A stretch of 64,000 nucleotides of DNA from a virus. The notes under the pieces were generated by a model. That model was not told the origin of the DNA, made no database searches, and saw only the letters and a program-made list of their open reading frames with translations. This document shows positions 6,581 to 61,640 of the stretch, one piece after another (the first letter of the stretch is position 1; each line of letters starts with the position of its first letter). The DNA is taken from the UHGV virus genome UHGV-0101699; one strand, given 5' to 3'. Position numbers and translations under genes: made by a program.

Positions 6581-7586
6581 CCCTCTCTCTTATATCTGTG
6601 CTCTTTCCTGACTCGAATAACCTCTCTTATGGGGGACTCGTATCTCTCTTATTAGCGCTCTATACGGTGACCATTCGTATGGGAGAAAAGGCAACTTTCT
6701 TCTCTCTGCCGGTAAGTGGTTTTGCAGATGTTGTAGAGGTGGTGGTCTTGTGGTTTTACTCTGGTCTGTATTCTTCGTTTTGGGGATAGTTCTTCTCTGT
6801 GTATGGAGTGATGGCGTGCGCGCTTTTCCTTTCGTTCATCTTGAGAGGTGGAAGTGTGGGTGATGTGGTTTCTGGTCTGTTGTCGTTCTCCGCATGTGAA
6901 GTAATGGCGTTCCCTACTTATCAGGAATTTGCGTTATCTTTCGAGGTAAGAGTGGGTAAACGAGATGGCGCCGGGTACTGTTCTGGCCTGGTCTTGTCTG
7001 GAGTTTCTTCCCGGGTATTCTCTTCCGTGTATTGGGGAATGGCGTTCAGAGAAACTGGCTTTCTCTCGCCGCTTTTTGGTGGTGGTCGAGATTTGCTTCA
7101 TGGGGTCGATAGCCTGGGGCAATGAGGTTGGTCTTTTCGGTAGCCTGGCAGGAAGAGGTGGGTATTGCCTGGGTGTGGGGAAATGGCCGTTCCTTTTCTT
7201 CGTTATCTTGTTTTGTTGTTTTCTTCTTGCCTAAAACAATTTGTTTATATACTCATTAAACGCAACCAGAGCGATTCTGAGCGTGTCTGTTTTGTGGTGG
7301 TATCAGGAGTCGTTTTTGGCGTTTTCGTCGCAGGGTGTTGGTCTCTGGTACGCTGCTTAACGGATATAAGAAGTGACATGGCAAAACGTCAACTTTTGAG
7401 ACCAAATCAGGGTAAAGCGTTGACTTTTCATTGATGTGTTATTTATTTGTTTTCTTGTGGGTGTTATGTGCGTAAAAGCCTTGCCACGCCTGGAGTGTAT
7501 GAGGTTGGAGGGTAGGGGAGAGGGGCGATCAACGAGTTCTTATAGAAATCCTCAATTAGTGACCGCCAATGTCAACGCGTTGCAGG

Positions 7587-7781
7587 CTATGGTTGCGCGT
7601 TAACTATCCGCCAGGCTATCGCATAGACCTGCTCTCTAACTTCCGTATCCATCCACCCCCACTCATTGGCCAGTGCCTTTAACTCAGCAGGTATGTTGTC
7701 AAATACGGTGGCTATGAGGAGATGATCAGGTAGCTTACCCAGCTCCACCAGCACATCATTAATCACGTCTTCTGTCGTCAT
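7587..7781 (-). CDS. hypothetical small protein (start MTTEDVINDV)
   Basis: ORF; ATG at 7781 preceded by purine-rich stretch. Confidence 0.45.
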   Translation of the reverse strand: MTTEDVINDVLVELGKLPDHLLIATVFDNIPAELKALANEWGWMDTEVREQVYAIAWRIVNAQP

Positions 7782-7794
7782 CTTTTTCTCTCTC

Positions 7795-8112
7795 TTACCA
7801 GTCCCATGCTGGCATTCCATCCACCAGCTCGGCATCACGATCAAAGTGAACCACGTCGTAACCGGCATCCAGTATCATCTTGATATTGGCGATCGCCGCT
7901 TCGGAGATGTTGAATGTACGCAGTTCATCTGCCCAGCTATTGTCACGCATTCCGGCACGAACAATCCAACCATATTCTGTGCCGTGTACCCAGTTAAGAC
8001 CGCGATCGGTGATTGGGTCAAAACAGGCAATTGGCAACCGTTCGGAGTCTTCCGCAGTAACGTGCGCAGTGCTGATAACAGCTGTCTTGTAGGCTTCAGT
8101 GATTTTCAACAT
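7795..8112 (-). CDS. hypothetical protein (105 aa)
   Basis: ORF preceded by early motif at 8123-8190. Confidence 0.55.
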   Translation of the reverse strand: MLKITEAYKTAVISTAHVTAEDSERLPIACFDPITDRGLNWVHGTEYGWIVRAGMRDNSWADELRTFNISEAAIANIKMILDAGYDVVHFDRDAELVDGMPAWDW

Positions 8113-8233: not shown

Positions 8234-8506
8234 TTACGTTAAATTGAAGTCATCGAAATCGACGAACTCCATGTGTCTGGCTTCCACCTTTGCAAGAGTG
8301 AGCAGAAACAACATCCCCTCTCTAAGAGAGGTTGGTTGTTCGAGCAGGAACTCAAAACCGTCCACATGTGTCTTGCCCAACCAATAGCCGCCACCATACT
8401 GTCTCTCTCGCTGGAAAAAGACGCACTGGCCAGGTTTGAAATGTTTAAGTGTCTCGCCTCTGTAGACGATCTGATAACTGGTGTCTTTTCCGCCCATTTT
8501 AACCAC
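8234..8506 (-). CDS. hypothetical protein (90 aa)
   Basis: ORF in early array. Confidence 0.5.
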   Translation of the reverse strand: MVKMGGKDTSYQIVYRGETLKHFKPGQCVFFQRERQYGGGYWLGKTHVDGFEFLLEQPTSLREGMLFLLTLAKVEARHMEFVDFDDFNLT

Positions 8507-8628
8507 CTCAGAACACTGTATATTTAAACAGTAGTTCTTTGATGAAATGCGGTCAAGTTTGACAGTGGGGGTAATAACTTGTTGGTGAAAACAAATTATT
8601 TAAGGCCATAATAATGGCCTTATCACTG

Positions 8629-44753: not shown

Positions 44754-45102
44754 TTTGTTATGTATCCGCTTACTAATTTATATCAATAGTACCATGAAGA
44801 AATCAGCTGGTGGAGCATGTGTCGTGAAGATGAGAGGGGGTAGGTTGGGTAGAGACGTTTATGTGGCGACGCTGTGAAAAGGAAAATAAATGTTGCACAA
44901 ACAGAAAGGCCATGCGTTAATGATTGCGTCGGTTTGCAAGACAGACCTTATGAAAGCAGTTTTAGTAAAGCAGTCCGAAGTTCAGGTGTTATCCAAAGAT
45001 TACCCTTCTCCGTGAGTCTCCTCCTAAGTGCCCAAGTAAGTACCAATCTCTCAGACCAATTTCGCCGCGTTGTGTGGCTCTCAAATAATGAAGGTAATCT
45101 CT

Positions 45103-45318
45103 ATGTCTAACAAAATGACTGGTTTAGTAAAATGGTTTAACGCTGATAAAGGCTTCGGTTTTATTACCCCAGCAGACGGCAGCAAAGACGTGTTCGTACA
45201 TTTCTCTGCCATCCAGAGCAACAACTTCCGTACCCTGGAAGAAGGCCAAAAAGTTGAGTTCTCTATTGAGAACGGTGCTAAAGGCCCTGCTGCTTCAAAC
45301 GTAGTTACGTTGAGCTAA
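45103..45318 (+). CDS. cspA: cold-shock protein CspA family
   Basis: [38 protein letters not shown] ... near-identical to E. coli CspA; AAGG RBS; about 230-nt upstream leader. Confidence 0.9.
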
Positions 45319-45440
45319 TTTCATTTCGGTAATCTATCCGCTGCGATAACGATGACGGCCTGAGCCTGAGTAGTCAGTTTGGAAGGATTATTGGAAGGAG
45401 TTAAAGGTCGTTAGATCTGGACGGCTTCTCTACTAACTCC

Positions 45441-45472: not shown

Positions 45473-45914
45473 ATGCTACTTTTCTACCGAAAATGTTTGA
45501 TAGAGTGACTCTGGTCTGCCTCTTAAGCCGGTATCTTCTGACGTCGCCTATCTTGCTCACCTCCATGAACTCCTTGGCCACCTTCAGGACAAGACGGGCA
45601 CGGAACGCTTTAAATGAAGCCAGCTCTTCTTCTGGTTTGTCAGATTCATAAATCTCCAGAAGATATTGGCACGCCTTTGGATCTTGCGTTTTTAAAGCCA
45701 GCGCACGCGCGCATTTCCGTAATCGACAAATAGGGTCGGCGCCATCCTGCTTTGCAAACGCCAATGCCAGATCGAGCGTGACAGGGCAGTCAATGATTTC
45801 CCAGAACTGGGATCGCAGAGTGGCTTCAATCGCCTTCTCCTGAAACTCCTGTGGTATTGCTGTGAGCTCTTGAGCAATTTTATCCGCTGCGCTCATGTGT
45901 TTTCCTTTACTCAT
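45471..45914 (-). CDS. hypothetical protein (147 aa)
   Basis: ORF coupled downstream of the DnaE C-terminal fragment. Confidence 0.5.
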   Translation of the reverse strand: MSKGKHMSAADKIAQELTAIPQEFQEKAIEATLRSQFWEIIDCPVTLDLALAFAKQDGADPICRLRKCARALALKTQDPKACQYLLEIYESDKPEEELASFKAFRARLVLKVAKEFMEVSKIGDVRRYRLKRQTRVTLSNIFGRKVA

Positions 45915-47080
45915 TTGTTAATAGTCTCCGCAACCTCTGCCAGAATGGCTTCCAGCTTTTCTCCTTCCTCTGGACGGAAGTACAAAATATTCGGGTTAAA
46001 TCCATAGAACACGGTCACGTCCAGGTCTGGCAGATATTCTTTGCGCCCAACAAGATCGGATGGCTTGCTCTTGTTATTAAACAGCGATGTCGCCCGGCTG
46101 CCGCACGTCAGCACGTAAGTTGGACGAACCAGATTTATCTCTTCCCGCATAAAGTCGATAAACTGGCCGATCTCATCTTTGGTGTAGTCTTTTTCCTTAT
46201 CCTTTACCTTTTTACACACGCCTGTGACATACAAATCACCCATACGCAGGTCACCAGAAACCAGCAACTTGGCTTTGAAGTCATCGTAGCCGTTCTCCAT
46301 GAAGTAGCCGGTACGTGCATCATTGCCATTGGCGTTGTCGAGTATGACCATAATTTTTGGCTTAATGCCGATGCTTGGTCGTATCAACTCATCGCCCAGA
46401 CCCATTTCTGCGGCCATGCGAGTCATCAGCACATTGACCTCTGCAGAGCGTTTTGGGTTCATTTCAAATGGGCGTGAAGCTTTCACCGCATCGATCACCA
46501 GATTGCCCATCAGCTCTGCCTGATCGCGCAGACGTTCCGGATCGGTCGCCGGCATACTGCCAGGTTCAATAGAGGCGAATGCACCAACCTTTTGTAGAGA
46601 CTCACGTACTCGGCTGTTACAGGCTCGCTTCTCGACCGCTTCCTCAAATTGCTCAAGTGACTCGAATTTGCCGCCAACTTTCTCACGCGCTCTCATGATG
46701 GCCTGGCAACCATTCTCAGAGCAGCCTTTCACAGCAGAGAATGGCGCATACAGAACCTGGCTGCCGTCTTCCAGCGTGCGGATCTCAATTCGGTTAGATG
46801 ACACGTTAACGTCTGGTGGCAATACGCGAATGCCATAGGTCAGCGCATCCTTAACCAGCCCCTGGTGCTTATCCTCGCCCAGAATGGTGAGAGCAGCAGC
46901 GAAGAACTCAGCAGGGTAATGTGTCTTTAACCACATAGACTGATAGCTGATCAGCGAGTAGGCAACGGAGTGTGATTTGTTGAAGGCATATCCACCGAAC
47001 TTCTCAAAGGCGTCCCATACTTCTTGGGCTTTCTCAGGGCTAAGACCTTCCTGCTCGGAAATAACTTTGGCAATTTTCAT
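45911..47080 (-). CDS. dnaE: DNA polymerase III alpha (DnaE-type) C-terminal fragment
   Basis: FGGYAFNKSHSVAYSLISYQSMWLKTHYPAEF matches the DnaE motif region around residue 800 onward; OB-fold tail. Confidence 0.85.
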   Translation of the reverse strand: MKIAKVISEQEGLSPEKAQEVWDAFEKFGGYAFNKSHSVAYSLISYQSMWLKTHYPAEFFAAALTILGEDKHQGLVKDALTYGIRVLPPDVNVSSNRIEIRTLEDGSQVLYAPFSAVKGCSENGCQAIMRAREKVGGKFESLEQFEEAVEKRACNSRVRESLQKVGAFASIEPGSMPATDPERLRDQAELMGNLVIDAVKASRPFEMNPKRSAEVNVLMTRMAAEMGLGDELIRPSIGIKPKIMVILDNANGNDARTGYFMENGYDDFKAKLLVSGDLRMGDLYVTGVCKKVKDKEKDYTKDEIGQFIDFMREEINLVRPTYVLTCGSRATSLFNNKSKPSDLVGRKEYLPDLDVTVFYGFNPNILYFRPEEGEKLEAILAEVAETINK

Positions 47081-47802
47081 GTGTTTTTCCCGTCATTAGC
47101 TTCAAACGCTAGCTTTTTTAAGATATTTGCGATTTGAGTGTTAGAGATGCCGAATTTTTCTCGCAACTTTTCATAGGTTGCGCCAGCCTTGCGCAAGGCG
47201 ACCACCTCAGCTCTTGCTTCAGCATCCAGTTTTTTGGATGCTCTTGAGACAACGATCGGCCCACCAACTCGTGCCCATTTCTTCCCGGTGACGATATGGT
47301 GAATGTAAAGCTCAGTTAAACCATATTCGGCCGCGAGGTCTTTGTTCAGAGCGCCTTCTGACTTTTTAATGCGAATAGCAATGACGACTTCGTTGGTTAG
47401 CTTGGCGTTGTAGCGCCTCTCACCAAACTCAACGGTATCGTGTGCAATGGCGTCAGCCATGTTGTCGACTTGAGTGCCATACGCGAGATTGGAGGGCGCA
47501 TTGTTTGATGGTCTTCCGTCAAGATGACGAATAAGTAAGCCTTCTGGTCGTTCTCCGTGGAATGCAGTTGCTACCAGATAATGGACTGTGCGGTCGCATT
47601 TGACGCCGTTGACGCTTAGTTTCACGCCCAGATGTCCAAAATCATTGATTACGCGAGGTTTGAGGATTTGCCCCTTCTTCACCCATTCGCCCCCATTGGG
47701 GGCTGTTCGTATAACATCTAAAGAGCGAATGCGACCTAAACTGGATGCTTCGTAATAACCTTCAAACTCAGGAATGGATTTCCAAATTTCTTCCACCGTC
47801 AA
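47077..47802 (-). CDS. HNH homing endonuclease (NUMOD4/HNH_3 type) inserted within dnaE
   Basis: EFEGYYEASSLGRIRSL N-terminal module; HYLVATAFHG ... RHLDGRPSNN HNH motif; ATGA start/stop overlaps with both dnaE fragments. Confidence 0.8.
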   Translation of the reverse strand: MTVEEIWKSIPEFEGYYEASSLGRIRSLDVIRTAPNGGEWVKKGQILKPRVINDFGHLGVKLSVNGVKCDRTVHYLVATAFHGERPEGLLIRHLDGRPSNNAPSNLAYGTQVDNMADAIAHDTVEFGERRYNAKLTNEVVIAIRIKKSEGALNKDLAAEYGLTELYIHHIVTGKKWARVGGPIVVSRASKKLDAEARAEVVALRKAGATYEKLREKFGISNTQIANILKKLAFEANDGKNT

Positions 47803-50162
47803 ACTCCAAAATCAACAATATCAGCGTTATCACCAATCGCTTCGTCATAGGTTCTGCGTTTGCCGTCAGAGCACATCAGCTTGGCCTTTTTGTGGACTTC
47901 TACTGTGCTTCCGTTTTCAAGTGACAGTGTCACCCAACCTGCTTGCGCTCGTTCTACAAAATCGCTGCCGATCGCTTTCATCTTATCCATGTTCTTTTTA
48001 CCGATAGCGGAACGCAGAGCGTCAGCCTCAGCCATAGAGAATCCAGCGAGTACGCGAGAGCTTTTCATGATCTGCTCTTGATAGAGTAAAACGCCGTTGG
48101 TTTCTTTAGTTGCTTCCTCAAGACGCGGATGAATTGAATGTGGAGCCATAAAACCTTTTGCCACGGAGACATAGTCGTCCAACATGCCTGACTGAATTGG
48201 ACCTGGTCTGAAAAGCGCAGTTGTGGCCACAATGGTTTTGAAGCTCATTGGCTCGATACCACCACCCAGATCTTTGAGTAGCTTCCTCATGGGGCCGGAC
48301 TCAAGCTGGAACACACCTTGCGTATACCCCGCGGCGAATCCATCAAGTACTTTGCGATCATCCAGTGGGATGGCATCGAGGTTGACGTCCTTACCGGTGC
48401 TCTCTTTGATGTAACGTTTTGCGCTATCCAGCAGATCGAGAGTGGCCAGGCCCAGAACGTCCAGTTTGATCAGCCCCATGGCCTCGCAGTATCGTTTATC
48501 GAATGCGATGCAACGCGCGTCTCCACGTCGCTCTACAGGGGTACGTTCCGTCAGAGGTACGCCAGCAACAATCATCCCTGCAGCATGGCGGCCGAAGCCA
48601 CGCATCAGGTTTTGCAACTTGCTCGCCGCCTTAAATGCGTCCGGATGTTTGGTGGCGTACTTGTCCAGGCTGGCCAGCTGCTCGCGCAGCTCCGACAGAG
48701 ATAAACTGTCATCCTCCAGGGTCTTTAGCTCCTTGGAAACAGCCATATCCGCCGCATCAACTCCATAAATACGCGCTGTGTCGCGCAGTGCGGAAGCGGC
48801 GCCCAGATAAGTGAAGTTCGGAATGCCTGCAACATACTCTTCGCCATATCGGGCATTCAGATACTCGATCACCTCATGGCGCCGCGCCTGGCTAAAGTCC
48901 AAATCCGCATCCGGCAAGTCGAGACGTTCAGGGTTAATGAAACGTTCGAACAGAAGACCATGACGGATTGGGTCAACGTTAGTAATGCCGATGCACCATG
49001 CCACCAGAGAGCCGGCGGATGAACCACGACCTGGCCCGACAGGAATACCAGTCTCGCGACTATGATTCATCAGATCGCGAACCATCAGGAAATAACCGCA
49101 GAATCCCAGGCGAGTGAGCGTTTCCATTTCATACTTGAGGCGATCGACGTAAATGCGGTGCTCGGAAGCTGGTGGCGTGTAGCCAAATTCTTTGTTGCTG
49201 AGACGTTTTCGAAGCCCTGCGACAGCCAGTTTCATCAACGTTGCAGGCTCATCGTCTGCCATTTTTGGCAGCGCCGGCGCCATCTCGTGCCAGCGCCATT
49301 CGCACGCCTTAACAATGGAGTCCTGCGTTGTAGAAGCCATGGCGGCAGACACAGATACGCCCATCCGGACAGAAAACTCTTTCAGAGCCTGCAGCAGATG
49401 ACGGCGACCATTTATTGCATTGTCGCGCTGGTGGGGGATACGCAGCCGGTGTGGCTGATCGACTTTGATATTGTTCATCACCATGTGGGCGATGTCTTTG
49501 ATGTCAGCGTCATCAACCCCTTCGTAATAAGCTGGGTAAAACGCAACGGGCTCGATTTTCAGTGCGCTTGCCACTTTCATGGCTCGCACGTTGATCTGGT
49601 CATAGAATGGCGTAGGGTGTGGATATACGACGCTGTAGAAATTATCGCGTCCACCGGCAGTAATCAGCGCACTAATAATTTTAGCGAAGTCCGGGCGCTG
49701 GAATACGCTGCCGATATCCGAAGTCAGTAACAGTATATTGCCTTTAGCGTATGTAGCCGCCAACTGGTCGAGCGCCAGGCGTGGCACGAAGTAAAACTGC
49801 TCGCGGGTATTGGCTAAAGTCATTAGTTCGCAAATGTCGCGATAACCTTGCTCGTTTTTAATCAGTGCGGTGAAGCAGTAGTTACGTCCACGCTCCAATG
49901 ATTCCATACATCCATTAGACTCTTTAGCCAGTTTAGCCCGGTACTCGTATGTTGGATCGTCGACAACATTCAGCTTAACACCACAGATCACCGCCATCTC
50001 ATCGCCAGCTGCTCGTTGCAGGGGGATAACGCTGGCGATATTCATCGTGTCAGCAGAGATAACCGCGGTATAGCCAGCCTCCTTTGCCACCTTTACTGCG
50101 TGCTCTGCTTTCAGTGCTGATTCTCCCAGGGAAAAATCAGTCCTGACCATCAGTGCTTTCAT
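47799..50162 (-). CDS. dnaE: DNA polymerase III alpha (DnaE-type) N-terminal fragment (PHP + polymerase core)
   Basis: PHP-domain N-terminus; GPGRGSSAGSLVAWCIGIT polymerase motif; ends with a 40-aa tail with no counterpart in E. coli DnaE. Confidence 0.85.
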   Translation of the reverse strand: MKALMVRTDFSLGESALKAEHAVKVAKEAGYTAVISADTMNIASVIPLQRAAGDEMAVICGVKLNVVDDPTYEYRAKLAKESNGCMESLERGRNYCFTALIKNEQGYRDICELMTLANTREQFYFVPRLALDQLAATYAKGNILLLTSDIGSVFQRPDFAKIISALITAGGRDNFYSVVYPHPTPFYDQINVRAMKVASALKIEPVAFYPAYYEGVDDADIKDIAHMVMNNIKVDQPHRLRIPHQRDNAINGRRHLLQALKEFSVRMGVSVSAAMASTTQDSIVKACEWRWHEMAPALPKMADDEPATLMKLAVAGLRKRLSNKEFGYTPPASEHRIYVDRLKYEMETLTRLGFCGYFLMVRDLMNHSRETGIPVGPGRGSSAGSLVAWCIGITNVDPIRHGLLFERFINPERLDLPDADLDFSQARRHEVIEYLNARYGEEYVAGIPNFTYLGAASALRDTARIYGVDAADMAVSKELKTLEDDSLSLSELREQLASLDKYATKHPDAFKAASKLQNLMRGFGRHAAGMIVAGVPLTERTPVERRGDARCIAFDKRYCEAMGLIKLDVLGLATLDLLDSAKRYIKESTGKDVNLDAIPLDDRKVLDGFAAGYTQGVFQLESGPMRKLLKDLGGGIEPMSFKTIVATTALFRPGPIQSGMLDDYVSVAKGFMAPHSIHPRLEEATKETNGVLLYQEQIMKSSRVLAGFSMAEADALRSAIGKKNMDKMKAIGSDFVERAQAGWVTLSLENGSTVEVHKKAKLMCSDGKRRTYDEAIGDNADIVDFGV

Positions 50163-51671: not shown

Positions 51672-53951
51672 TTACTCTAAAATGATACGAGATAACTCGC
51701 TGACAACTGACGTACCCAACTCTTCGACCTTATTCACTAGCGCATAGTTTTTGTAATACCGGCGCGGCGCGTCCGTAAGAATGCCAATGGCCAACAGGTT
51801 GATGTCACTTGTGTTTTCGATGTCATTCGTTACAGAGCGCAGATGGTTACTAAAGCCATCCCCCGCAGCGCATGGGGCGCCGTCGCTCTGCACAATCATG
51901 ATCTTCTTGTCTTCCATACGCCCTGCAAACAGAGAAGCCAGCTGTGCGATGCTCTCGCCATCCACGTTGTTTAGCAGGGGGAAAGTCTCCGCCACACAGC
52001 CCATACGAGCACGTATCTCTGGGGAGTTCGCTTTTTCATGCCAGTTTTTAATAATCGGCAGCATAAGCGCTTCAAAGCGGCTAAACCCACGTTTCGACAT
52101 AGTTGCTACATCCGGATTGCCATACGTAGTGAAGCCGGTAATGACGTTCGGAACGTGGATACGATCTAGGGCGTCAGCCAGTGTGTATGCGGATGCCAGC
52201 GCGAGCTCGATTTTTCGGCCGCCCATTGAACCTGACAAATCGATGACCTGTTGAACGCACGCGTTCACGGCCTTGTGGTCTTCTTTTCTCCGGAATACCC
52301 GATCGTCATTCATCGACAGTCGGTAAAGACTCGCCCCATGTACGCGTCCACGACGCTGGCCAGGGATGAACTGAACACGGTTACGACTGGCGATCGCGCG
52401 CTCCAGGTCTTTGGCCAAGGTAGATGACACCGAGGAAGACAGATGTCTCTCCACCTTCATCACAAACAGTTTTCTGCCCTCTGGAACAATGCGGTAGCGA
52501 TCTACGGGAGAATACATAGGGATTGCGCCAAAAGCTTTTCTGGCGCGCTTAATATGCTCTTCTGCCTCGTCAATTGGCCCCAGAAAGTCGTAGGAGCGAT
52601 TGTATGGCCGGTAATCAGATAGTGACGCGCTGGCCAGCTCCGACTTGATCGCCGACGCCAGCGCATCTTCGGTTGAAGAACCTATCTCTTCATCGACGTT
52701 TTCTAATGCCTTGAGAGCATCATCAAGAGACATATCGTCAGCGTGTGGGGCAAAGCCGGCATCGCTTTCATCCGAGGTGTCCCGACCCCCTTCATCCTTC
52801 TCCTTGCCACCGTCTTTATCTGCCTTGCCTTCACCGTCTTCGACAGCTTCGCTGTCATCAGAGGAGCTGCCATGCCTGTCCTCTGAGCCATCATCCGTGG
52901 ACGGACTGTAATCCCCTTCATCATCTACTTCTTCCCCTACATCCGAGCCCAGAGATGTAACAGGATCATCAGCTGTCGTTTCTTCGCTGTCAGGCAAGTC
53001 GTCAACATTTTCATGGCCTAAATCGCCATCTTCAGGTTTACTTTCTGTATCATTTATTACTTCATCACTGTTAGGTATGTGCTTACTTATCGATTTGTCT
53101 GATTTTTCATCATCTTCATCGTCAGAGCTAAACCCATCAGGAGTGCTTTCGAGCCCCTCTTCGTCACAAACCTCAGTATCGTCTCCAGCAGCCGGCTCAT
53201 CCGAACTGTCTTCTTCTGGTTCGGTCTTTTTGGTTACAGAGGATTCAAGCTCAGGTAACGGGCCTTCTGGCATCTCAGTCATTTCACGCAGGATCTTCGC
53301 CATTGCTGCAGCAACCTTGACGCAATCCTCAGTGCTATCCATACGACGAACAGCTTCATCGACGCCAAACTCTTTCAGTACGGCAATAGGTTTATCGATG
53401 AGGTGCCAGTGCTCCTCCATGAAATCAACAAAAGTTGGTTGGCCATCCCACGCCCGTAGAACCGGACAGAGGAAGAACTTTAGAAACAACTCGCGTTGAT
53501 CCCCGCGGCACATCGCTACCGCCTTTTTAATGTGGGGATTAAAATATTTATCAATCATTAGGTTACGTGTGGACAATAGGTTCCGCCGGCTGCCGGTGAA
53601 CACTTCACTCATGCGACGTTCGATGTAGACGTCTTCCAGGGCGTTCCAGAGTCCGAATGCCTTTGTGTTGCGCATTTTCTTGACGACTTTTTCGTCTGTG
53701 AAAAGGAGATGGCCAACCTCGTGATCAAGGAATCCACGTATGGCATTCATAAGCGCAGGGCTTGCGTCATCTGGTATGGATGGGATGTTAACCATGACTG
53801 GCTCACCCTTTTTATTGTAGCGAACGTATGCTGTGTCTCCGCATTCAGCTACAGGAATATTCTTGCCCGAAAGAAGACCAACGACGCGTTTTACGGAATC
53901 GCGGAAGTCCTGTACCTCTTTGAGTACAGTTTTGCTGGGTTTGGTTGCCAT
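51672..53951 (-). CDS. CobT-like protein with central acidic/Ser-rich low-complexity region and C-terminal von Willebrand A domain
   Basis: MIDAS-like DLSGSMGG ... vWA fold; start MATKPSKT with ACACATG context. Confidence 0.65.
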   Translation of the reverse strand: MATKPSKTVLKEVQDFRDSVKRVVGLLSGKNIPVAECGDTAYVRYNKKGEPVMVNIPSIPDDASPALMNAIRGFLDHEVGHLLFTDEKVVKKMRNTKAFGLWNALEDVYIERRMSEVFTGSRRNLLSTRNLMIDKYFNPHIKKAVAMCRGDQRELFLKFFLCPVLRAWDGQPTFVDFMEEHWHLIDKPIAVLKEFGVDEAVRRMDSTEDCVKVAAAMAKILREMTEMPEGPLPELESSVTKKTEPEEDSSDEPAAGDDTEVCDEEGLESTPDGFSSDDEDDEKSDKSISKHIPNSDEVINDTESKPEDGDLGHENVDDLPDSEETTADDPVTSLGSDVGEEVDDEGDYSPSTDDGSEDRHGSSSDDSEAVEDGEGKADKDGGKEKDEGGRDTSDESDAGFAPHADDMSLDDALKALENVDEEIGSSTEDALASAIKSELASASLSDYRPYNRSYDFLGPIDEAEEHIKRARKAFGAIPMYSPVDRYRIVPEGRKLFVMKVERHLSSSVSSTLAKDLERAIASRNRVQFIPGQRRGRVHGASLYRLSMNDDRVFRRKEDHKAVNACVQQVIDLSGSMGGRKIELALASAYTLADALDRIHVPNVITGFTTYGNPDVATMSKRGFSRFEALMLPIIKNWHEKANSPEIRARMGCVAETFPLLNNVDGESIAQLASLFAGRMEDKKIMIVQSDGAPCAAGDGFSNHLRSVTNDIENTSDINLLAIGILTDAPRRYYKNYALVNKVEELGTSVVSELSRIILE

Positions 53952-54068
53952 GTGTTTTTCCTTATCGAGTAAACAAATTGTTTTCAGATATAAGAAAATA
54001 ACACTGCGCGAACAGGGGAGGAAGCAATTCGCGCAGGGGATCAATGAGTTATAGGCGGGTTATAAATT

Positions 54069-54299
54069 TTAGTTGATTCGAACCGCGAAAGAGAGGTCGC
54101 CAGTATTGATCAGCGTGAAAGAGCCATTTTCCAGGGAAAACCGGAAAACAGTAGCGTCGCGCGCTCTAACGTTTACCTGGTGATTTGGTAACTCAGATAG
54201 TACTTCTGCAGCCTCCAGGTGTGTCAGCGCGAAAACATTGCCTACATTCAGAGCAAGTAAATTAGATGACAATTTTTCCATTAATAGCATCCTAATCAA
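54069..54299 (-). CDS. hypothetical small protein
   Basis: 76-aa ORF at edge of AT-rich island. Confidence 0.4.
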   Translation of the reverse strand: MIRMLLMEKLSSNLLALNVGNVFALTHLEAAEVLSELPNHQVNVRARDATVFRFSLENGSFTLINTGDLSFAVRIN

Positions 54300-54554
54300 C
54301 AGGTTTCATTTGGAGGTGATGGTACTACCTATTGATATAAAAGTTAATAAAAATGTATCGTAATGTCTTAAACAAAAATAATCAAAAAAATCAACAGAAG
54401 TACCGGATTTTACTAATTTATACCTTATTTCGTGTGATTTATGTGCGATAATTGCCTACAAATAGCCGGATGTAAGACTTTACAATAATAACCGTTGCTG
54501 TAATATCGGTAAGTACTTACCATACAATAAGATCACACGAGGATAGTAACTACA

Positions 54555-54935
54555 ATGACAATGGCCGATGAGAAGACCGCTCGTTACGTCGCCTACATCG
54601 ATTCTTTAATCACTGTTTCGCCGAAAAGTCAGTCGGCGATCTCCCGTGAGATTGGTTACAAGAATCCCAACATTTTGTCCCTGATAAAAAAGGGAAGAAT
54701 TCCGCTGCCGGTAGAGAAAGTGCTACCACTGGCAGAAGCACTGAATGCAGACCCAGTACGTCTCATGATGATGGTTCTTGAAGACCGTCAGCCTGAGCTG
54801 GCAGATTTTTTACGAGACCAGGGCATAGCGCCGCTGACTCCGGAAGAACGTGAGGTTCTCGCAGCTTTCCGCAACCGCTTTCCGGCTCAAACTGATGGTG
54901 TTGAGCAGGTTGTGGAAGCAATTAAAAAGCTATGA
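54555..54935 (+). CDS. HTH DNA-binding protein (XRE/Cro-like)
   Basis: SQSAISREIGYKNPNILSLIKKGR helix-turn-helix; plus strand, convergent with recombinase. Confidence 0.55.
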   Translation: MTMADEKTARYVAYIDSLITVSPKSQSAISREIGYKNPNILSLIKKGRIPLPVEKVLPLAEALNADPVRLMMMVLEDRQPELADFLRDQGIAPLTPEEREVLAAFRNRFPAQTDGVEQVVEAIKKL

Positions 54936-56030
54936 GAAGTTTACTCTGATCAGCTCGGTGGATAGGCGATCTCCCTTCATTTTGTGGTCAATTTCTTCTA
55001 AATCTGGTTGCTCAACAATCGACGAGATGTACGATGAGAAGCTCTCAAGGGCTTCTCGCATCTGATCCATGTAGTCATATCGGTCGTATACACGGTCGAT
55101 ACCTTCCAGACTATGATTCATGATCTTACGTGATACTTCCTGAGAAATATTAAGGGCTGGAAAGTAGCTGCGTGCCGTTCTACGCAGATCACGTGGGGTA
55201 AACGACTCCACTTCCCCAAGCTCTGGTCGCTCTAGAATCCGCCTCAACGCCTGGGCTATTGCAACCTTTGACATTGGCGTATCAGCTTTCTTTTTGTTCG
55301 ACGGGACGAGCCACTGGCTGCCGGCGCCATAAGCAATCAATTCTTCTACGCACTTCCGCATCAGTGAGCTCATCGGAAGGGTGTGCGACCGGGCCGATTT
55401 GTTGCGAGACCCTTGATTCCATACATTTAGCTTAAGGTCGAACTCGCTTACTCTGGCCCGCAGCACTTCATCTGGACGTCTGGCAGCTACGAGGCAAAGC
55501 CTTGCCGCCCATTTCGTGCCTGGACATACGTCGAAATAGTCCCAGACATTCCAGAATACCCAAACCTCTGCGTCCGTCAGGCATCGTTCCCGCGGGGCCG
55601 TCTTCGCGCCGCCGGCAACTTTGTTCAGCGACATATCATTCAGGGGCGATGTTTCGATAATTCCCTGGAAGGCACACCATCCCAGGAACTGCTTCATGAT
55701 GGAAAAAACACGGCGACCCATCACGATCTTCCCTTCAAGGATCAGCGGGTTGACCAGCTGATTCACCATTATTCTATTCAGGTTACTTACTTTTTCCTGA
55801 GCGATATGCGGGAGAACATGTATCAAAACACAATGGACAGCTATCTCGGGCCGGCGGCGAGTTATCAATAATGATAAGCGAGTGAATAACATGAATGCGT
55901 CGGCGAAAGTCAGATCGGCTCCCTGCATCGAGACCGATCTGGCATCCATCTGCGATGCCCGATCCAGATAGGTGATCGCTTCCTGTGACGTGTTTTCCGC
56001 TGCGCGTGCTCTGTCAAACGTGTTTTTCAT
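54930..56030 (-). CDS. tyrosine site-specific recombinase
   Basis: C-terminal catalytic domain with R ... HxxR ... Y pattern (ARRPDEVL, SHTLPMS, RDLRRTARSY ... Y). Confidence 0.8.
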   Translation of the reverse strand: MKNTFDRARAAENTSQEAITYLDRASQMDARSVSMQGADLTFADAFMLFTRLSLLITRRRPEIAVHCVLIHVLPHIAQEKVSNLNRIMVNQLVNPLILEGKIVMGRRVFSIMKQFLGWCAFQGIIETSPLNDMSLNKVAGGAKTAPRERCLTDAEVWVFWNVWDYFDVCPGTKWAARLCLVAARRPDEVLRARVSEFDLKLNVWNQGSRNKSARSHTLPMSSLMRKCVEELIAYGAGSQWLVPSNKKKADTPMSKVAIAQALRRILERPELGEVESFTPRDLRRTARSYFPALNISQEVSRKIMNHSLEGIDRVYDRYDYMDQMREALESFSSYISSIVEQPDLEEIDHKMKGDRLSTELIRVNFS

Positions 56031-56050
56031 AATCTGGCCACTGTATGACG

Positions 56051-56084
56051 CTTTTTATACTGTGTTTATATACAGTATATTAGG
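56051..56084. promoter_or_regulatory. lox-like recombination site candidate: 13-bp imperfect inverted arms around an 8-bp asymmetric spacer (TATACTGT-GTTTATAT-ACAGTATA core)
   Basis: Perfect 8-bp inverted core, 10/13 arm matches, 20 bp upstream of recombinase start. Confidence 0.4.
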
Positions 56085-56379
56085 CATTGTTTTTATTGAG
56101 ATCAACCTAAAATACCCTCTTTTGTCTAATGATTCCATACCTACCAAGTATGGAATCATAGAAAGGCCTTTTTTTGAAAATTAGTCATCAGGGCCGTGCA
56201 TTTCCCGCTTGTTTGTTTGCGACATCACCCTTGTCTTTGCGTTATGTCCCATCGTTGTCCGGTGCCAGTTTAGTCATGTTTGCGTCTATGGCTGTCTCGA
56301 TGCCGCCTGGTCTCGAAGGGGGGACTTCGTCAATTCATGATATGATAGCTTTAATGGTATAGCTATGAAGGAATCATAG

Positions 56380-56739
56380 ATGATGACCTTAAAATATTAT
56401 TTACGGCACTGCTTATGGGGATGGTGTGGTTATGGCTATCTGATCTATTTTATAGTGCGCGATATGAATGACGGACTAATTTTTCCTGCCTATGTTCCTT
56501 ATATGCCATTTGTGGTTACATATCTTGTTTTAAGCGCCGTCCTGTACCCATTCTCATATTATACTTCGGAGAAACTAGCCCTTAAGATAATGACCAAACC
56601 CTTTTGGGATCGTCACATTGGCGTGAATAGCGGTGTGTATGGCATGTTCATTATTTTGTGGTTATTTTGCCTGCCGCTTTCGGTACCGTTATTTCTCGTA
56701 TATTTATGCATACGCGCAAAGACTAGATTAAGTGCCTAA
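56380..56739 (+). CDS. integral membrane protein (3-4 TM) in AT-rich DNA
   Basis: 119-aa hydrophobic ORF, low GC. Confidence 0.5.
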   Translation: MMTLKYYLRHCLWGWCGYGYLIYFIVRDMNDGLIFPAYVPYMPFVVTYLVLSAVLYPFSYYTSEKLALKIMTKPFWDRHIGVNSGVYGMFIILWLFCLPLSVPLFLVYLCIRAKTRLSA

Positions 56740-56803
56740 AAAATATGAAAATTATCGCAATATAACCACGCTACGAATGAGAAAGGCATGGAGCTGCAGG
56801 TAA

Positions 56804-57214
56804 CTACGGGTTTGTTAATTTCTGGAAGGCTGCCGCGTATTTGGCGATGTCGCTCATTTTGGCTGGATCACTGGCTGTTTTGTGTGCCTCTTTCGGGAAG
56901 ATGGCCAGCAGACTATACACGTCCTGAAACTTGGCGTGCTGGGTATAAACGAGGGCGCGGTCGCTTGTACAGTTGAACCTGTTTCGGTGACTATTTCGTT
57001 CTTGCTTGGTGAATAAGAGATGAACGTGGTAAACACGAGAGGAAACTACAGAACCAGGTTCGGTATAGGGGCCATCTTTGCCAAAAACGGCCGGATAAAA
57101 GCCGTTTTTAAAACTCACAAAGTCAGCAAGTAAGGAGGTCTTCAGATCAGGCATTACTCTGAAGACCGGCTCCAAAAATTGGGCGTAACTATCACTGTTC
57201 CATGTGACTTTCAT
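56804..57214 (-). CDS. YafO-like toxin (ribosome-dependent mRNA interferase family)
   Basis: FGKDGPY ... VYHVHLLF ... LVYTQHAKFQDVYSLLAIFPKEAH ... MSDIAKYAAAFQ collinear with E. coli YafO motifs (FGRD, AHIHL, LVYCQG, LLIAIL.PEPH, MAEAF). Confidence 0.6.
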   Translation of the reverse strand: MKVTWNSDSYAQFLEPVFRVMPDLKTSLLADFVSFKNGFYPAVFGKDGPYTEPGSVVSSRVYHVHLLFTKQERNSHRNRFNCTSDRALVYTQHAKFQDVYSLLAIFPKEAHKTASDPAKMSDIAKYAAAFQKLTNP

Positions 57215-57223
57215 CGATCAGCC

Positions 57224-57841
57224 TTAATGGAAGGAGAAGTTTGCGAAGACGTCCTCATCAATGAGACCTGTCTGCGATTCGATAACCTCAACTTCGTTAA
57301 AGCACTGATTTAAAATCATCAGGAGGTCAGAAACCGCCAGACGGTACTCAGTGATAGCATCACTCAAACGTTTCAGGTACGGATGTGGCAGTTCGGCGTC
57401 ACGGATGAACTTGTTAACGAAGCCTTCTAAACCGCGTATGGACAGGTCAACGTTCTTCAAGTCCTCGTAACGGCTTTCACCGAAAGTATCGCGGATCTGT
57501 TCCGCACTGTAACCTGAAATGTTATGGGTCAACTGGACGTGTTTCGCCGTCAGCTCTGCGAGCCTTTGTTCAATATCCGCAAGTTGAGCTGCGGTGTCAC
57601 TCTCAGCAACCGGAATACCTTCCGTTTGCGGCAGTCTGAACTCATGGGAATCTGCAAAACCGGGCCTCGTCGACCTTGTGATGCCGCCGAAACGAGGACG
57701 CATCTTAAATTTTGTGTGTACACGCTTCGGGAATGCTTTCGGAGTGCTATTTGCATTCGAAAAGCGTGAAGCGTTAGAAGTCACGGTAGCAAGAGCATTG
57801 CTAATGACATTCATATCTTCCAAGCAATTTTCTAAATGCAT
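57224..57841 (-). CDS. hypothetical protein, candidate cognate antitoxin/partner of the YafO-like gene
   Basis: 205-aa ORF 9 nt upstream, same strand; not YafN-like. Confidence 0.4.
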   Translation of the reverse strand: MHLENCLEDMNVISNALATVTSNASRFSNANSTPKAFPKRVHTKFKMRPRFGGITRSTRPGFADSHEFRLPQTEGIPVAESDTAAQLADIEQRLAELTAKHVQLTHNISGYSAEQIRDTFGESRYEDLKNVDLSIRGLEGFVNKFIRDAELPHPYLKRLSDAITEYRLAVSDLLMILNQCFNEVEVIESQTGLIDEDVFANFSFH

Positions 57842-57935
57842 AAAACCTCTTTACAGCTAAATGGCTCGTACCTAAGTGTACGCTCTGTTATCAAAAGCGA
57901 CAAATCAAAACGGCCCCAAACGGAGCCGTATTGTA

Positions 57936-58181
57936 TTACAGAGTGCTTGCGAAAGCAGCAAATTCTGTGTAACCGCCGATTGGAACATCGTCCAAAAACA
58001 CCTGGGGAATGGTTTCTACCGGCTTCCCAACCATGCCACTCAGCTTTTGCTTATCGATCCCGGCAGCGACAATATCGATGTACTGATATTCGCCATATCC
58101 ATGCCCCTGCAGCTGCTTCGCCAGCTCAACTGCCCGCTTACAGAAGGAGCAATTATCTCGGCCATAAATCACACACTTCAT
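57936..58181 (-). CDS. glutaredoxin (NrdC/GrxA-like)
   Basis: CSFC active site in N-terminal CVIYGRDNCSFCKRA; thioredoxin fold length. Confidence 0.7.
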   Translation of the reverse strand: MKCVIYGRDNCSFCKRAVELAKQLQGHGYGEYQYIDIVAAGIDKQKLSGMVGKPVETIPQVFLDDVPIGGYTEFAAFASTL

Positions 58182-58564
58182 TGTTTTGCCTCGTTAAATC
58201 TTTGTTTTAAGAGATATCCTTCAAGTGGCCAGATTTTAGCGACTGCGTTCTGGCGCGCAATCTTACGACCGATCTCCGGATCAAAGTTTTCCGGGCTTGC
58301 ACAAGCTGATTCACCGGTAACGATGAATCCGTTCTCCAACACCAGTACACAAAACGTCAGTAATTTAAGCGACTCAAGATCAGCGTCGCCAGCAACTGGC
58401 ACCTCTTTGCCGGCATAGGTCCCACTTGCCAGGGCGCCAGATCTGCCATCAAAGGCCGTAAAATAATGTTCGGCGCGGATAACGCTTTGGATACGTTCTG
58501 GGGTTACTCGCGCGGCCGTTTTTCCCTTGGCCACGATTTCTTTTTCGATTTCCATGTCAGTCAT
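58178..58564 (-). CDS. hypothetical protein (128 aa)
   Basis: ORF coupled to glutaredoxin. Confidence 0.5.
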   Translation of the reverse strand: MTDMEIEKEIVAKGKTAARVTPERIQSVIRAEHYFTAFDGRSGALASGTYAGKEVPVAGDADLESLKLLTFCVLVLENGFIVTGESACASPENFDPEIGRKIARQNAVAKIWPLEGYLLKQRFNEAKQ

Positions 58565-59621: not shown

Positions 59622-59708
59622 TTGGCGGAGGATAATGGAATCGAACCATCATCGCTTTCGCAATGGGACGGTTTTCAAGACCGCTTGGGCGCCATGCCCT
59701 CTATCCTC
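59622..59708 (-). tRNA. tRNA-Ser (anticodon UGA), CCA encoded
   Basis: GGAGGAT acceptor, anticodon arm GCGGTCTTGAAAACCGT identical to E. coli tRNA-Ser(UGA), long variable arm, T-arm GGTTCGATTCC. Confidence 0.75.
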
Positions 59709-59856
59709 CGTTCGTTGTGACGCCAGATGCTTATCTTCTGGTTGCTTCAACGAGCTGCAATTCATCACAACGGTAAGGGCATTCAGGGAATCAGATCCGT
59801 CGCGAACAGCCAAAGAGCGCGCCTTCCTTGCTGTCGTCCAAATACCCTTACCGTTG

Positions 59857-59931: not shown

Positions 59932-60860
59932 TAAGGTTGACACCGTCAGCCTCTGTCGATTCACGGACTTGTGGGGCTGTATCGCCGATTCACCGGTGTC
60001 GTTCGCAGCAGTCCTACCGCTTTCTGCCACTTGTGCTTTACGTATTCACCAAACGCTTACAAGCCAAGATCTTCAAATACTCTCCGAGGGTTGAGGAGGG
60101 CTTTCTTTCAGATCTAATTGGATGTATGGAATCATTTAATCGTTGTGGCCACGGGGCAGTGACAACAATGGCTATAACCAGAAGGATAATGAATCCGTGA
60201 CCACAACGTTGAGACCACTGGACGGATTAATGTACTTGGCCCTACATGTCTGCCGGTTCTGCCTCTGTGATGCAAAAACCAGTGGTCTCAACGTTGCGTG
60301 CTGGCTCACCTAACCAGCCGGGTTACGTCGCCATTTTTAACCCAAAACTAAACGACATAAGTAACAGAAATGACGTAACAGGATAGACGGTCGGGCCTTT
60401 GGGAGCCGGGATGTGTTGGACATAAAACCCAACCGCCCATTCTGTTACCTCATCGGTAAGGGCACTGGTTAACCAGATGCCCTACCTGCGTTTTGCAATC
60501 ACACTCGCTTAGTGTGTCCCATTTCGGTGACGAGGCTGGAAACTGACCTCGCTGGTGTTTAGCTTTTTAGGCTACTGCCAGGTACTGATTGTCGTTTGCA
60601 GTTATCTTTAAACGTTCAAACAGTCGCGTTTCAACGAAAACAAGCCAATCATAGTTGTATCAATTTAATAAGTAAATACTTACCTATTATTTCATACGTC
60701 AGTTTGATCATTTTTTGATCAGTACTGGCTTCTCATCCTGCGTCCGTTGGATTGTGGCCGTTAAACGTTTGACTCTGATCAATCGCACTTTCTTAGATCT
60801 GTAGCAGTCACCTGTTCTACGTTGTTAATACATTTTGTCGTCTATGAACGTATAAGTGAT

Positions 60861-61277
60861 TCACACAATTTTACTTATCCATCCTTCGATAACATCATAG
60901 GCCACATAGCTTTTCGCGATAACAGTTGTCGCTATTACAAAGAACCATTTATGCTTTCCCACAAATCTTTTCACCTTTTCATATTTACTCAGTGATCCCT
61001 CGTAATACTCAATCAGAGTAATCCACTGCTGAATTTGCTCTTTATAATGATTACAAAGATTTTTATTTATTTGGGCTTGCTGCAACGACCGACTCCTAGA
61101 CAACCAACCACCAGTAACTGGTGGCTTAATTTCAGGCAGTTCAGTATCAAATTTAGTACGTTGTTGGTTAAGCCGATCAACAACAACACGAAGTTCATCT
61201 GCGGTGAGATCATTACGAGCATAAATATCTTTCAGTTGAGCTAGTGTCATATGAAGCACTCTTTTGGTTGATGACAT
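60861..61277 (-). CDS. hypothetical protein with C-terminal transmembrane anchor, in AT-rich DNA
   Basis: 138-aa ORF, low GC (about 35%). Confidence 0.45.
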   Translation of the reverse strand: MSSTKRVLHMTLAQLKDIYARNDLTADELRVVVDRLNQQRTKFDTELPEIKPPVTGGWLSRSRSLQQAQINKNLCNHYKEQIQQWITLIEYYEGSLSKYEKVKRFVGKHKWFFVIATTVIAKSYVAYDVIEGWISKIV

Positions 61278-61424
61278 TAATTATACCATCTTCAGATATG
61301 CTCTGTAGGAGTCGCCCCGTGGAGCTACAGAAATGTAAGTTACGGGCAAACTTCTTAATCAAGTCATGACAGATGATGAAGCCAAGGGCGACGCCTCCAA
61401 AAAAAGACAATACGATGTATGGAA

Positions 61425-61640
61425 TCATGAGTATTCTCCTGCTTCAATCAGTTGCTCAAGCAGCTCTCGCCCCTTATTCGTTAACTGGTAGTTCTCTGCC
61501 TTTCCTTCCGGTTCGACATTGGCCACCAGGTTCATCTGTTCGAGCTTGGCTCGTGTCTTGGGTTTCCAGTTAGCGTAGAAACATGACCATTGGCTGATTT
61601 CACGCAGGGTTTCCTTCTCTCGCTTACTCAGGACGATCAT
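61425..61640 (-). CDS. hypothetical small protein
   Basis: 71-aa ORF. Confidence 0.45.
   Translation of the reverse strand: MIVLSKREKETLREISQWSCFYANWKPKTRAKLEQMNLVANVEPEGKAENYQLTNKGRELLEQLIEAGEYS

Follow-up and report, generated by a model that had tools for sequence, protein, structure and literature searches.

Which DNA site does the tyrosine recombinase of a phage-plasmid act on, and what does the reaction serve? The question is raised by a locus in UHGV virus genome UHGV-0101699, of which a stretch of 64,000 nucleotides, here called the window, was analysed. A first-pass annotation, made from the letters alone, had described positions 54,069 to 57,841 as an AT-rich accessory island, and had taken an inverted repeat beside the gene for a 366-amino-acid (aa) tyrosine recombinase (Int, gene int) for its lox-like site. 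We find that a lox-like site does adjoin the recombinase gene but that it is another repeat than the one named: the 24-bp repeat nearest to int is, as judged from its sequence and conservation, a LexA operator and not a lox site, whereas a stronger palindrome at 56128-56160, which had been overlooked, is likely to be the cognate target of Int. We consider it rather probable that the locus encodes a Cre/lox-like plasmid multimer-resolution system that is tuned by the SOS response and acts at this palindrome, and that the region as a whole is a control module for lysogeny and maintenance joined to a slot for cargo genes. The replicon itself is readily placed. Positions 53900-58200 are 98.3-98.8% identical over the full length to the Klebsiella phage-plasmids vB_KpnS_p4727, pJN2-26 and vB_Kpn_1825-KPC53, and the window is an SSU5-like Klebsiella phage-plasmid of the SSU5 supergroup; its E. 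coli relatives Cyrano (= pLF82) and PhiR41_1 have only the part with int and the neighbouring helix-turn-helix (HTH) gene in common with it, at about 74% DNA identity. The earlier picture of a plasmid cassette embedded in a phage thus gives way to that of an element that is a phage-plasmid throughout.

The repeat that had been put forward as the lox-like site is present, with its 8-bp spacer, beside the recombinase gene. It measures 24 bp (8-8-8) rather than 34 bp, and its start is separated from the int ATG (56030) by 25 bp instead of 20 bp. As an inverted repeat it would hardly attract attention: about two to three perfect 8-bp inverted repeats with a short spacer are expected per 4.1 kb, and this one is the weakest of the nine listed, so that its significance lies only in the exact match to the SOS-box pattern and in its conservation. 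It contains TACTGT-N8-ACAGTA with 0 mismatches and fits the gamma-proteobacterial LexA pattern TACTG(TA)5CAGTA with CTG-N10-CAG. On a matrix of E. coli LexA sites it scores 25.0 bits, in the top range of the training sites (8.7-26.5 bits), against a maximum of 18.4 bits in 30 shuffles of the window. Among Int homologues of at least 76% identity, a box of at least 15 bits is found in 52 of 53 distinct sequences upstream of int. These comprise 20 sequence variants, in which only the CTG and CAG columns are invariant, the spacer drifts, and the two halves may differ (CTGT...CCAG; CACTGT versus ACAGTA). Such variation is how LexA operators would be expected to evolve, unlike the paired arms of a crossover site. 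No SOS box was found in the clade with 55-62% Int identity, nor at the Xenorhabdus, Providencia, Pantoea, Rahnella and Erwinia homologues, all of which have the recombinase; relatives that carry the recombinase without the repeat are what the first-pass annotation itself had named as speaking against its proposal. The locus of a second group of Klebsiella phage-plasmids (L194, 57% Int identity) has an SOS box of its own, at 24.4 bits.

The motif is not confined to int. A second strong box, CACTGTATATTTAAACAGTA (25.1 bits, 8514-8533), lies directly upstream of an open reading frame (ORF) on the minus strand (8234-8497, 87 aa, phrog_2100) that is unrelated to int. Box and phrog_2100 homologue are conserved together in SSU5 (TACTGTATATATAAACAGTG) and in the P22-like Salmonella phage SI8, there adjoining xis, and the gene is a candidate for a LexA-controlled antirepressor or induction factor of the phage-plasmid. 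The window holds two boxes of this strength and the complete 110-kb pJN2-26 only these two; upstream of the orf205-yafO pair in the cargo, a matrix scan detected no SOS box of 10 bits or more.

The palindrome at 56128-56160 is of a different kind. Perfect 12-bp arms (56129-56140 and 56148-56159) enclose a 7-bp spacer (56141-56147), giving 12/13-7-12/13 overall, and none so strong is expected by chance (0 in shuffles). It is located about 50 bp past the SOS box and about 23 bp upstream of the -35 hexamer of the putative int promoter. Exact-arm pattern scans of 185,579 species genomes and of IMG/VR contigs recovered it in 7 species genomes (Yersinia pestis, Kluyvera, Chimaeribacter, Buttiauxella), solely beside int, and in 101 IMG/VR contigs; at all 109 loci with int in view, 45-101 bp separate it from the int homologue downstream, which is 55-100% identical. 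Because these scans demanded exact arms and the sample was therefore subject to ascertainment, we added a sample that started from the protein. All int homologues examined (43-100% identity) have the palindrome 45-136 bp upstream, among them the Klebsiella 57% clade, Pantoea, Rahnella, Erwinia, Xenorhabdus (two) and Providencia. In the second Klebsiella group (L194) it reads GTGATTCCATAC-TCTATAG-GTATGGAATCAC and is followed by that group's own perfect SOS box; on Pantoea pPANA10, a 303-kb non-phage megaplasmid (Int 47%), it reads GTGACTCCAGAC-TTAACAG-GTCTGGAGTCAC; and in Rahnella, Erwinia, the two Xenorhabdus and Providencia (Int 43-49%) arms with TGACTCCAGAC flank the spacers TTAATAG, CTATTAA, GTAGTTA and TACATAG. 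Arms are 11-14 bp long and at least 16 spacer variants occur, with spacer length constant at 7 bp. The arm core exists in two alleles only, TGATTCCATAC and TGACTCCAGAC, and both arms switch together, tracking the Int clade. The palindrome is kept where the SOS box is absent, and it is kept at megaplasmid loci where int has H-NS, ovoA or other neighbours and no HTH gene, so that it travels with int and not with the HTH gene. A lox- or dif-type core, but not an RNA hairpin, would be expected to combine invariant arms with a freely varying spacer, and by these criteria the palindrome is likely to be the recombinase's cognate lox-like target. Literature searches with the site sequence, and for the function of the pMT1 or pHCM2 integrase, returned no description of the palindrome and nothing relevant.

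The HTH protein was considered as the binder of the palindrome and rejected, given the megaplasmid loci without an HTH gene and the different palindrome at the HTH promoter. The spacer also occurs in exact reverse complement, in two independent cases: ATAGTAG versus CTACTAT distinguishes L003 (PhiR41_1) from L053, both flanks being identical, and a second reversal, TTAATAG versus CTATTAA, separates lineages (L008 and L055 versus 28 other loci). Each reversal amounts to a small inversion between perfect inverted repeats, with hairpin template switching as a possible cause.

Is Int itself equipped for recombination? Because its profile gave no match to PDB sequences at E<=0.01, structure prediction and Foldseek were used. 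The AlphaFold2 model (predicted local distance difference test score 87) matches lambda Int (residues 75-356), Tn1549 Int, IntI (PDB 2a3v), XerH and Cre with a Foldseek probability of 1.00. R185, K211, R283 and the nucleophile Y315 are invariant in 32/32 family members, and H306 is present in 29 of the 32, with Q in the other 3. The distances R283-H306 (23 residues) and H306-Y315 (9 residues) agree with those of XerD. Since the nucleophile and the basic residues are kept from phage-plasmids to megaplasmids, over 43-100% identity, the conserved Tyr, Arg and Lys argue for selection on catalysis. The N-terminus, at about 40 aa, is some 60 aa shorter than that of P4-like integrases (about 100 aa) and contains no PF13356 arm-binding domain. 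A homologue is carried by 1071 PLSDB plasmids, 982 of them non-mobilizable, and 5,426 complete E. coli genomes yielded 254 copies in 252 genomes, not one of them chromosomal (0/254), which makes a role as chromosomal integrase very unlikely. Homologues also reside on non-phage megaplasmids of Pantoea, Rahnella and Erwinia. On these grounds the earlier preference for dimer resolution or cyclisation over chromosomal integration holds up, and plasmid maintenance (multimer resolution, possibly cyclisation) is the simplest fit for Int. Tyrosine recombinases have been counted among the persistent genes of the SSU5 supergroup (PMC7969092). PADLOC gave no match to Int, to the HTH protein or to the cargo proteins.

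How might int be connected to the SOS response? An alignment of ten diverged lineages displays three conserved blocks on the minus strand, TTGATC, TAATAT and the SOS box, with diverged DNA between them, and from this phylogenetic footprint we infer a sigma-70 promoter for int. The SOS box begins at the final base of the -10 hexamer and spans the expected transcription start, so that LexA bound at the box would cover the start of int transcription. With 8/12 consensus matches only, the promoter was not listed by a simple scan. That scan offered a plus-strand TTTATA-16-TATATT over the SOS box, which was rejected because its -35 is not conserved, unlike that of the minus-strand TTGATC-17-TAATAT. 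Published transcriptomes of strain LF82 are consistent with SOS control of int: Cyrano int rises from log2 5.6 in LB (lysogeny broth) to 10.3 at 6 h in macrophages, about 25-fold (PMC9928086 supplement), host sulA goes from 7.1 to 9.85 in macrophages, and ciprofloxacin induces Cyrano (PMC9928086).

We picture the following scenario. In an undamaged lysogen, LexA on the int promoter would hold int low; RecA* would elicit LexA self-cleavage, and int would be induced. One Int monomer would occupy each arm of the palindrome, with Tyr315 cutting where the arms meet the AT-rich 7-bp spacer. If two directly repeated palindromes in a plasmid dimer then recombined, monomers would result, comparable to the action of Cre/loxP in P1, whose role in dimer resolution or cyclisation is cited in PMC7969092. 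The same reaction could circularise terminally redundant infecting DNA. Because dimers arise by RecA-dependent recombination, linking int to the SOS response would provide more resolvase when dimers are likeliest. To the left, orf76 and the HTH gene would form a divergent switch with a separate, different operator; to the right, the DNA from the palindrome to the grx terminator would be a cargo slot, occupied here by an immunity-like membrane protein and the orf205-YafO pair.

Several observations sit uneasily with this scenario. Strong LexA repression would be odd for a housekeeping resolvase, and we know of no LexA control of Cre or ResD. The first histidine of the HxxR motif is an arginine (R280) in 32/32 family members, and a histidine in 6/6 P4-like outgroup sequences; topoisomerase IB and telomere resolvases have other basic or aromatic residues here. 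In macrophages int is one of many Cyrano genes that rise, so that its increase is not specific to LexA control and the macrophage data are supportive of it rather than diagnostic. The SOS matrix was compiled by hand from E. coli LexA sites. LexA binding, the promoter, the binding of Int to the palindrome and the resolution function are deductions from sequence identities, conservation, co-variation, protein fold and replicon location. Finally, simple dimer resolution needs no half-sites, yet such elements surround the palindrome and hint at an extra or different role for Int.

These half-sites are single copies of the palindrome arm, a 14-15-mer (G)ATGTATGGAATCAT, near the palindrome (see table), and do not vary between lineages although the DNA around them, codons included, has diverged. 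The complete pJN2-26 has no other copies; all lie at most 6.3 kb from the palindrome, and their polarity mirrors that of its two arms. The Xenorhabdus and Providencia phage-plasmids have none up to 10 kb from the palindrome in either direction, and the megaplasmid loci none within about 3-4 kb, though int and palindrome are present there. Because clade-2 phage-plasmids have none within 10 kb, the half-sites are a feature of clade 1. No inversion between palindrome and half-sites was seen, gene order being the same in the lineages compared. The recurrence of the arm suggests that the half-sites may serve as additional binding targets of Int. Conceivably, SOS-triggered Int might bridge the palindrome to the half-sites in a pseudo-synaptic loop, or recombine them as at sfx, and so rewire or rearrange a 12-kb block comprising lysogeny switch, replication genes and cargo; the recombinase would then double as an architectural effector of induction. 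This extension is speculative, and we would be surprised to see it borne out.

The DNA to the right of the palindrome varies greatly between relatives. The slot measures from 84 bp (empty) to 2370 bp, and 58 distinct intervals fall into 22 sequence clusters. In many E. coli plasmids homology to Cyrano stops exactly 1 bp past the right arm; across cargo types the slot opens with a loosely conserved leader of about 28 bp, a T-run followed by GAAAT. At the distal boundary neither a second palindrome or half-site nor attC sites were found, an ordinary terminator hairpin standing there instead. Cargo can be strongly expressed: CYRAN_43 of Cyrano reaches 723-fold above background (PMC9928086). On Y. 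pestis CO92 pMT1 (L199) the slot holds the caf1R-caf1M-caf1A-caf1 operon of the F1 capsule (1113-6241), with int at 7001-8104.

With these features in view, the competing explanations can be weighed. That the 8-8-8 repeat is the crossover site after all would account for a perfect inverted repeat with an asymmetric 8-bp spacer that adjoins the gene and keeps its CTGT and ACAG cores in close relatives. The same repeat is, as set out above, an exact SOS box whose motif recurs before an unrelated gene here, in SSU5 and in P22-like phages, its arms are conserved at CTG/CAG only and vary asymmetrically, and it is missing from distant homologues that all keep the other palindrome; the arms of characterised simple sites (lox, FRT, dif) are, moreover, longer than 8 bp. 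We attach almost no credence to it. Nor does the palindrome at 56128-56160 behave like a mere hairpin (transcription terminator or RNA element) shielding int from the cargo. It folds well as DNA (-10.5 kcal/mol, z = -5.2), and in many lineages a T-run follows about 10 nt downstream, but a gap separates this T-run from the stem, the arm core is limited to two alleles over 43-100% int divergence, without free compensatory drift, the 14-15-mer recurs as single copies, which cannot form hairpins, and Rfam gives no match. A terminator was rejected on arm conservation, T-run position and the single copies, and we judge the hairpin explanation to be highly improbable. An equally poor case can be made for a conventional integrase with the palindrome as the attP core for chromosomal integration. 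The protein is annotated as 'integrase' or 'site-specific integrase' everywhere, and its nearest outside relatives are P4-type integrases; against this stand the chromosome count in complete E. coli genomes and the missing arm-binding domain, which largely refute it for E. coli, as well as perfectly symmetric arms, no tRNA-like sequence at the palindrome, and an exact scan of species genomes that met the palindrome only next to int.

Two further explanations remain to be weighed. In integron-like capture, SOS-induced Int would insert circular cargo at the palindrome and thereby create the variable slot. The layout invites the comparison, with a LexA-controlled int, an adjoining site and variable, sometimes highly expressed cargo, and SOS control of integron integrases is established (PMC3108266). 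The 22 cargo types, the empty sites and the homology break 1 bp past the right arm would also suit it. However, integron-style capture is not supported, because the distal boundary has no second site, be it a palindrome, a half-site or an attC-like element. The leader also persists right of the arm across cargo types, cargo genes occur in both orientations with their own promoters, and IntI is only one among several comparable Foldseek matches; we thus hold capture to be improbable. The other explanation was raised because the half-sites suggest extra Int targets: Int might mainly be an SOS-induced DNA-binding regulator or architectural protein, with palindrome and half-sites as operators and recombination absent or secondary. 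In its favour, the four half-sites are confined to 12 kb around the palindrome in mirror polarity, one coinciding with the start of a gene and another in DNA that codes for no protein. The distance from palindrome to int start is a mere 45 bp in the 55-62% clade, where the palindrome probably overlaps the promoter, which would permit autoregulation. RxxR stands in place of the HxxR motif, Foldseek returns PDB 9rgl as a weak match, and integrase-fold repressors exist in SPbeta YopR and phi3T SroF (bioRxiv 10.1101/2025.11.27.690993). Yet the catalytic Tyr, the two Arg and the Lys do not vary even on megaplasmids, int and palindrome persist where no half-site lies within 10 kb (Xenorhabdus and Providencia phage-plasmids) or about 3-4 kb (megaplasmid loci), and the spacer, fixed at 7 bp, has crossover-site geometry. 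We regard a mainly regulatory Int as unlikely and keep to SOS-tuned multimer resolution at the palindrome as the explanation that we favour.

Table. Features of the int locus and its surroundings, in window coordinates.
Feature	Position	Strand	Sequence	Remarks
Half-site	49898-49912	-	GATGTATGGAATCAT	inside dnaE-like gene; invariant while flanking codons vary between lineages
orf76	54069-54299	-		phrog_2627 (1.2e-33); 70-71 aa in relatives' annotation
Divergent control region	54300-54554			31% GC
14-bp palindrome	54508-54521		GGTAAGTACTTACC	just past a TAATAT -10-like hexamer
XRE-type HTH regulator, 126 aa	54555-54935	+		phrog_8 (1.5e-8); RefSeq: XRE family transcriptional regulator
Tyrosine recombinase (int), 366 aa	54930-56030	-		PF00589 (1.7e-9, 38.1 bits, cut-off 27.1); core-binding and catalytic domains
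Half-site-like 11-mer	55413-55424	-	GTATGGAATCA	inside int, V-W-N-Q-G motif; in nearly all clade-1 int genes
Inverted repeat, 24 bp (8-8-8)	56056-56079		TATACTGT / GTTTATAT / ACAGTATA
LexA/SOS box	56058-56077		TACTGTGTTTATATACAGTA	putative operator of int promoter
Putative sigma-70 int promoter	56077-56105	-		-35 TTGATC 56105 to 56100, 17-nt spacer, -10 TAATAT 56082 to 56077
Lox-like palindrome	56128-56160		AATGATTCCATAC-CTACCAA-GTATGGAATCAT	right arm also written GTATGGAATCATa; proposed Int binding and crossover site
Variable cargo slot	56160-57935			palindrome to terminator hairpin downstream of grx
Membrane protein, 119 aa	56380-56739	+		PF03526 colicin E1 immunity; phrog_22982
YafO-family toxin, 136 aa	56804-57214	-		PF13957 (78.7 bits, 3.8e-22)
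orf205, 205 aa	57224-57841	-		phrog_13546; directly upstream of yafO, same operon
Half-site	60121-60135	+	GATGTATGGAATCAT	non-coding, right of tRNA-Asn; kept in Cyrano and other lineages, flanks diverged
Half-site	61414-61428	+	GATGTATGGAATCAT	first codons (MIPYI) of 71-aa membrane ORF 61213-61428 (minus strand)

How is the remainder of the region organised? All ORFs named by the first-pass annotation exist (HTH regulator, recombinase, membrane protein and YafO, together with orf76 and orf205), and strand orientation is mixed, as it had stated. The drop in GC content is real but modest (0.460 versus 0.489 for the window, rank 12/302 among windows of the same size); it stems from the membrane gene (0.40) and from the DNA between genes (two regions, 0.31 and 0.41), the composition of int (0.51) and of the HTH gene (0.50) being normal. 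As an accessory island, only the roughly 1.8 kb of cargo at 56160-57935 qualifies. The left two thirds, with orf76, the HTH gene and int, are core, because Klebsiella, E. coli, Yersinia, Xenorhabdus and Providencia all have cargo, int, HTH, orf71/76 and CobT in this order.

Within this core, orf76 lies between the HTH gene and CobT in the same five genera. It is the first gene of a leftward orf76-CobT-CobS block, divergent from the HTH gene, and could be called Cro-like by position only. Its homologue CYRAN_46 increases about 90-fold, from log2 4.3 in LB to 10.8 in macrophages at 6 h (PMC9928086 supplement); no other gene nearby changes as much, and a derepressed early promoter would be expected to behave in this way. 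The HTH protein is a candidate lysogeny repressor; in PMC9928086 its homologue CYRAN_45, which the lysogen expresses, is described as a putative repressor. The palindrome at the HTH promoter, GGTAAG-N2-CTTACC, is kept in Cyrano as GGTAAGCACTTACC (L002, 3576-3589), is unrelated to the Int palindrome, and is probably the operator of the HTH protein. The HTH gene and int are convergent, and their 3' ends overlap by 6 bp (54930-54935), as they do by 4-16 bp in all phage-plasmid lineages examined, including L194, L195, L196 and L198. Once SOS has induced int, its transcription must therefore enter the putative repressor gene in antisense, and transcriptional interference between the two is possible.

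The cargo of the window is less easily named. The match of the membrane protein to PF03526 is marginal (26.9 bits versus a cut-off of 25, residues 49-82 only); RefSeq calls it 'colicin E1 family microcin immunity protein'. The toxin is a member of the YafO family other than the E. coli equivalog (NF007377: 1.7e-16, 60.9 bits, under the cut-off of 153). Its partner orf205 has no Pfam, NCBIfam or PADLOC match, is not a YafN of the Phd/YefM type, and would be the antitoxin by position only. In other lineages the orf205-yafO pair occurs without the membrane gene, as a cargo of 1172 bp. The slot of the window thus has a colicin-E1-immunity-like gene without a colicin; in Xenorhabdus hominickii (L198), a colicin/pyocin DNase (Cloacin and Col-Pyo_DNase) with an immunity gene occupies 1-1698, upstream of int on the palindrome side.

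Some observations concern the window at large. The gene for a DNA polymerase III alpha subunit (dnaE-like, 45911-50162, minus strand) is read here as three overlapping ORFs (787, 241 and 389 aa) and is a single 1172-aa coding sequence in pJN2-26, which suggests frameshifts or sequence errors in the window. An Rfam search over the whole window gave no match in the region and elsewhere only a cspA thermoregulator (188.6 bits, 44928-45351, plus strand) and a tRNA; the phage-plasmid has a cold-shock protein gene with a regulatory 5' untranslated region of its own. ARAGORN reports a tRNA-Ser(tga) at 59623-59709 (minus strand), where Rfam at its gathering threshold gives only the adjacent tRNA-Asn.

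The pair of int and palindrome is found on more than 1,000 sequenced plasmids, including clinical Klebsiella and E. coli phage-plasmids that spread resistance genes, and Yersinia pestis pMT1. If the scenario of SOS-tuned resolution is true, it would fill in the missing multimer-resolution function of the SSU5 supergroup and would provide a plasmid resolvase that is wired to the SOS response. It would also mark the exact left edge of a cargo hotspot for toxins, immunity genes and the plague F1 capsule operon, and would offer two natural, possibly orthogonal recombinase-site pairs, with TGATTCCATAC and TGACTCCAGAC arms, as candidate tools for genome engineering. More generally, it corrects a tempting misreading: an SOS box beside a recombinase gene resembles a small lox site.

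How does the Int system compare with simple recombination systems already known? Cre/loxP of P1 is alike in that the recombinase has no arm-binding domain, that a simple site with inverted arms of about 13 bp and a short asymmetric spacer adjoins the gene, and that the replicon is a low-copy phage-plasmid. The geometry of Cre/lox-type sites (arms of 11-14 bp, an asymmetric spacer of 6-8 bp) fits 56128-56160 and does not fit the 8-8-8 repeat, and the palindrome and Int co-occur and co-evolve, as the site and recombinase of such a system should. The two systems differ in spacer length (8 bp in loxP, 7 bp here) and in the LexA operator, the RxxR motif and the satellite half-sites found here. There is no detectable sequence relationship between the proteins, Cre being ranked only at about 31 by Foldseek (E about 8e-3, 12% identity). 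Int may therefore work like Cre/lox, but it is not a member of the Cre family.

XerCD at dif or cer and ResD/rfsF of F resolve replicon dimers at a short core with inverted arms, and the ResD gene adjoins its site on a low-copy plasmid. Unlike the XerC/XerD heterodimer, the system described here has a single plasmid-encoded recombinase, symmetric arms and no recognisable accessory sequences of about 200 bp, and its SOS control is new relative to the XerCD and ResD systems. A 12-7-12 geometry, as in the palindrome, is known from R/RS of Zygosaccharomyces pSR1 and from Rci/sfx of the R64 shufflon. The sfx sites conserve one 12-bp arm and the 7-bp spacer and so provide a precedent for functional 'half-sites'. 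Hosts and sequences of both systems are unrelated to those of Int, and no inversions were seen here between the lineages compared. The nearest sequence relatives of Int are P4-type integrases (CP4-57 family, 27-34% identity), with which it has the catalytic and the central Phage_int_M domains in common. These integrases are chromosomal and have an N-terminal PF13356 domain of about 60 aa and the motif HDLRRT, whereas the Int family lacks PF13356, reads RDLRRT and resides on plasmids; neither the arm-binding domain nor the chromosomal copies by which lambda- and P4-type integrases are recognised apply to it. IntI/attI (PMC3108266) resembles the locus in having a LexA box on the recombinase promoter and a site with variable cargo beside the gene. 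It differs in its attC-bounded cassettes, of which there are none here, and the palindrome is a perfect double-stranded one. Moreover, Int resembles lambda Int or Tn1549 Int at least as closely as it does IntI, and the SOS box is specific to lineages and not a property of the whole family. Taken together, these likenesses and differences would make the Int system an as yet undescribed member of the simple-site plasmid resolvases, set apart by its unusual SOS wiring.

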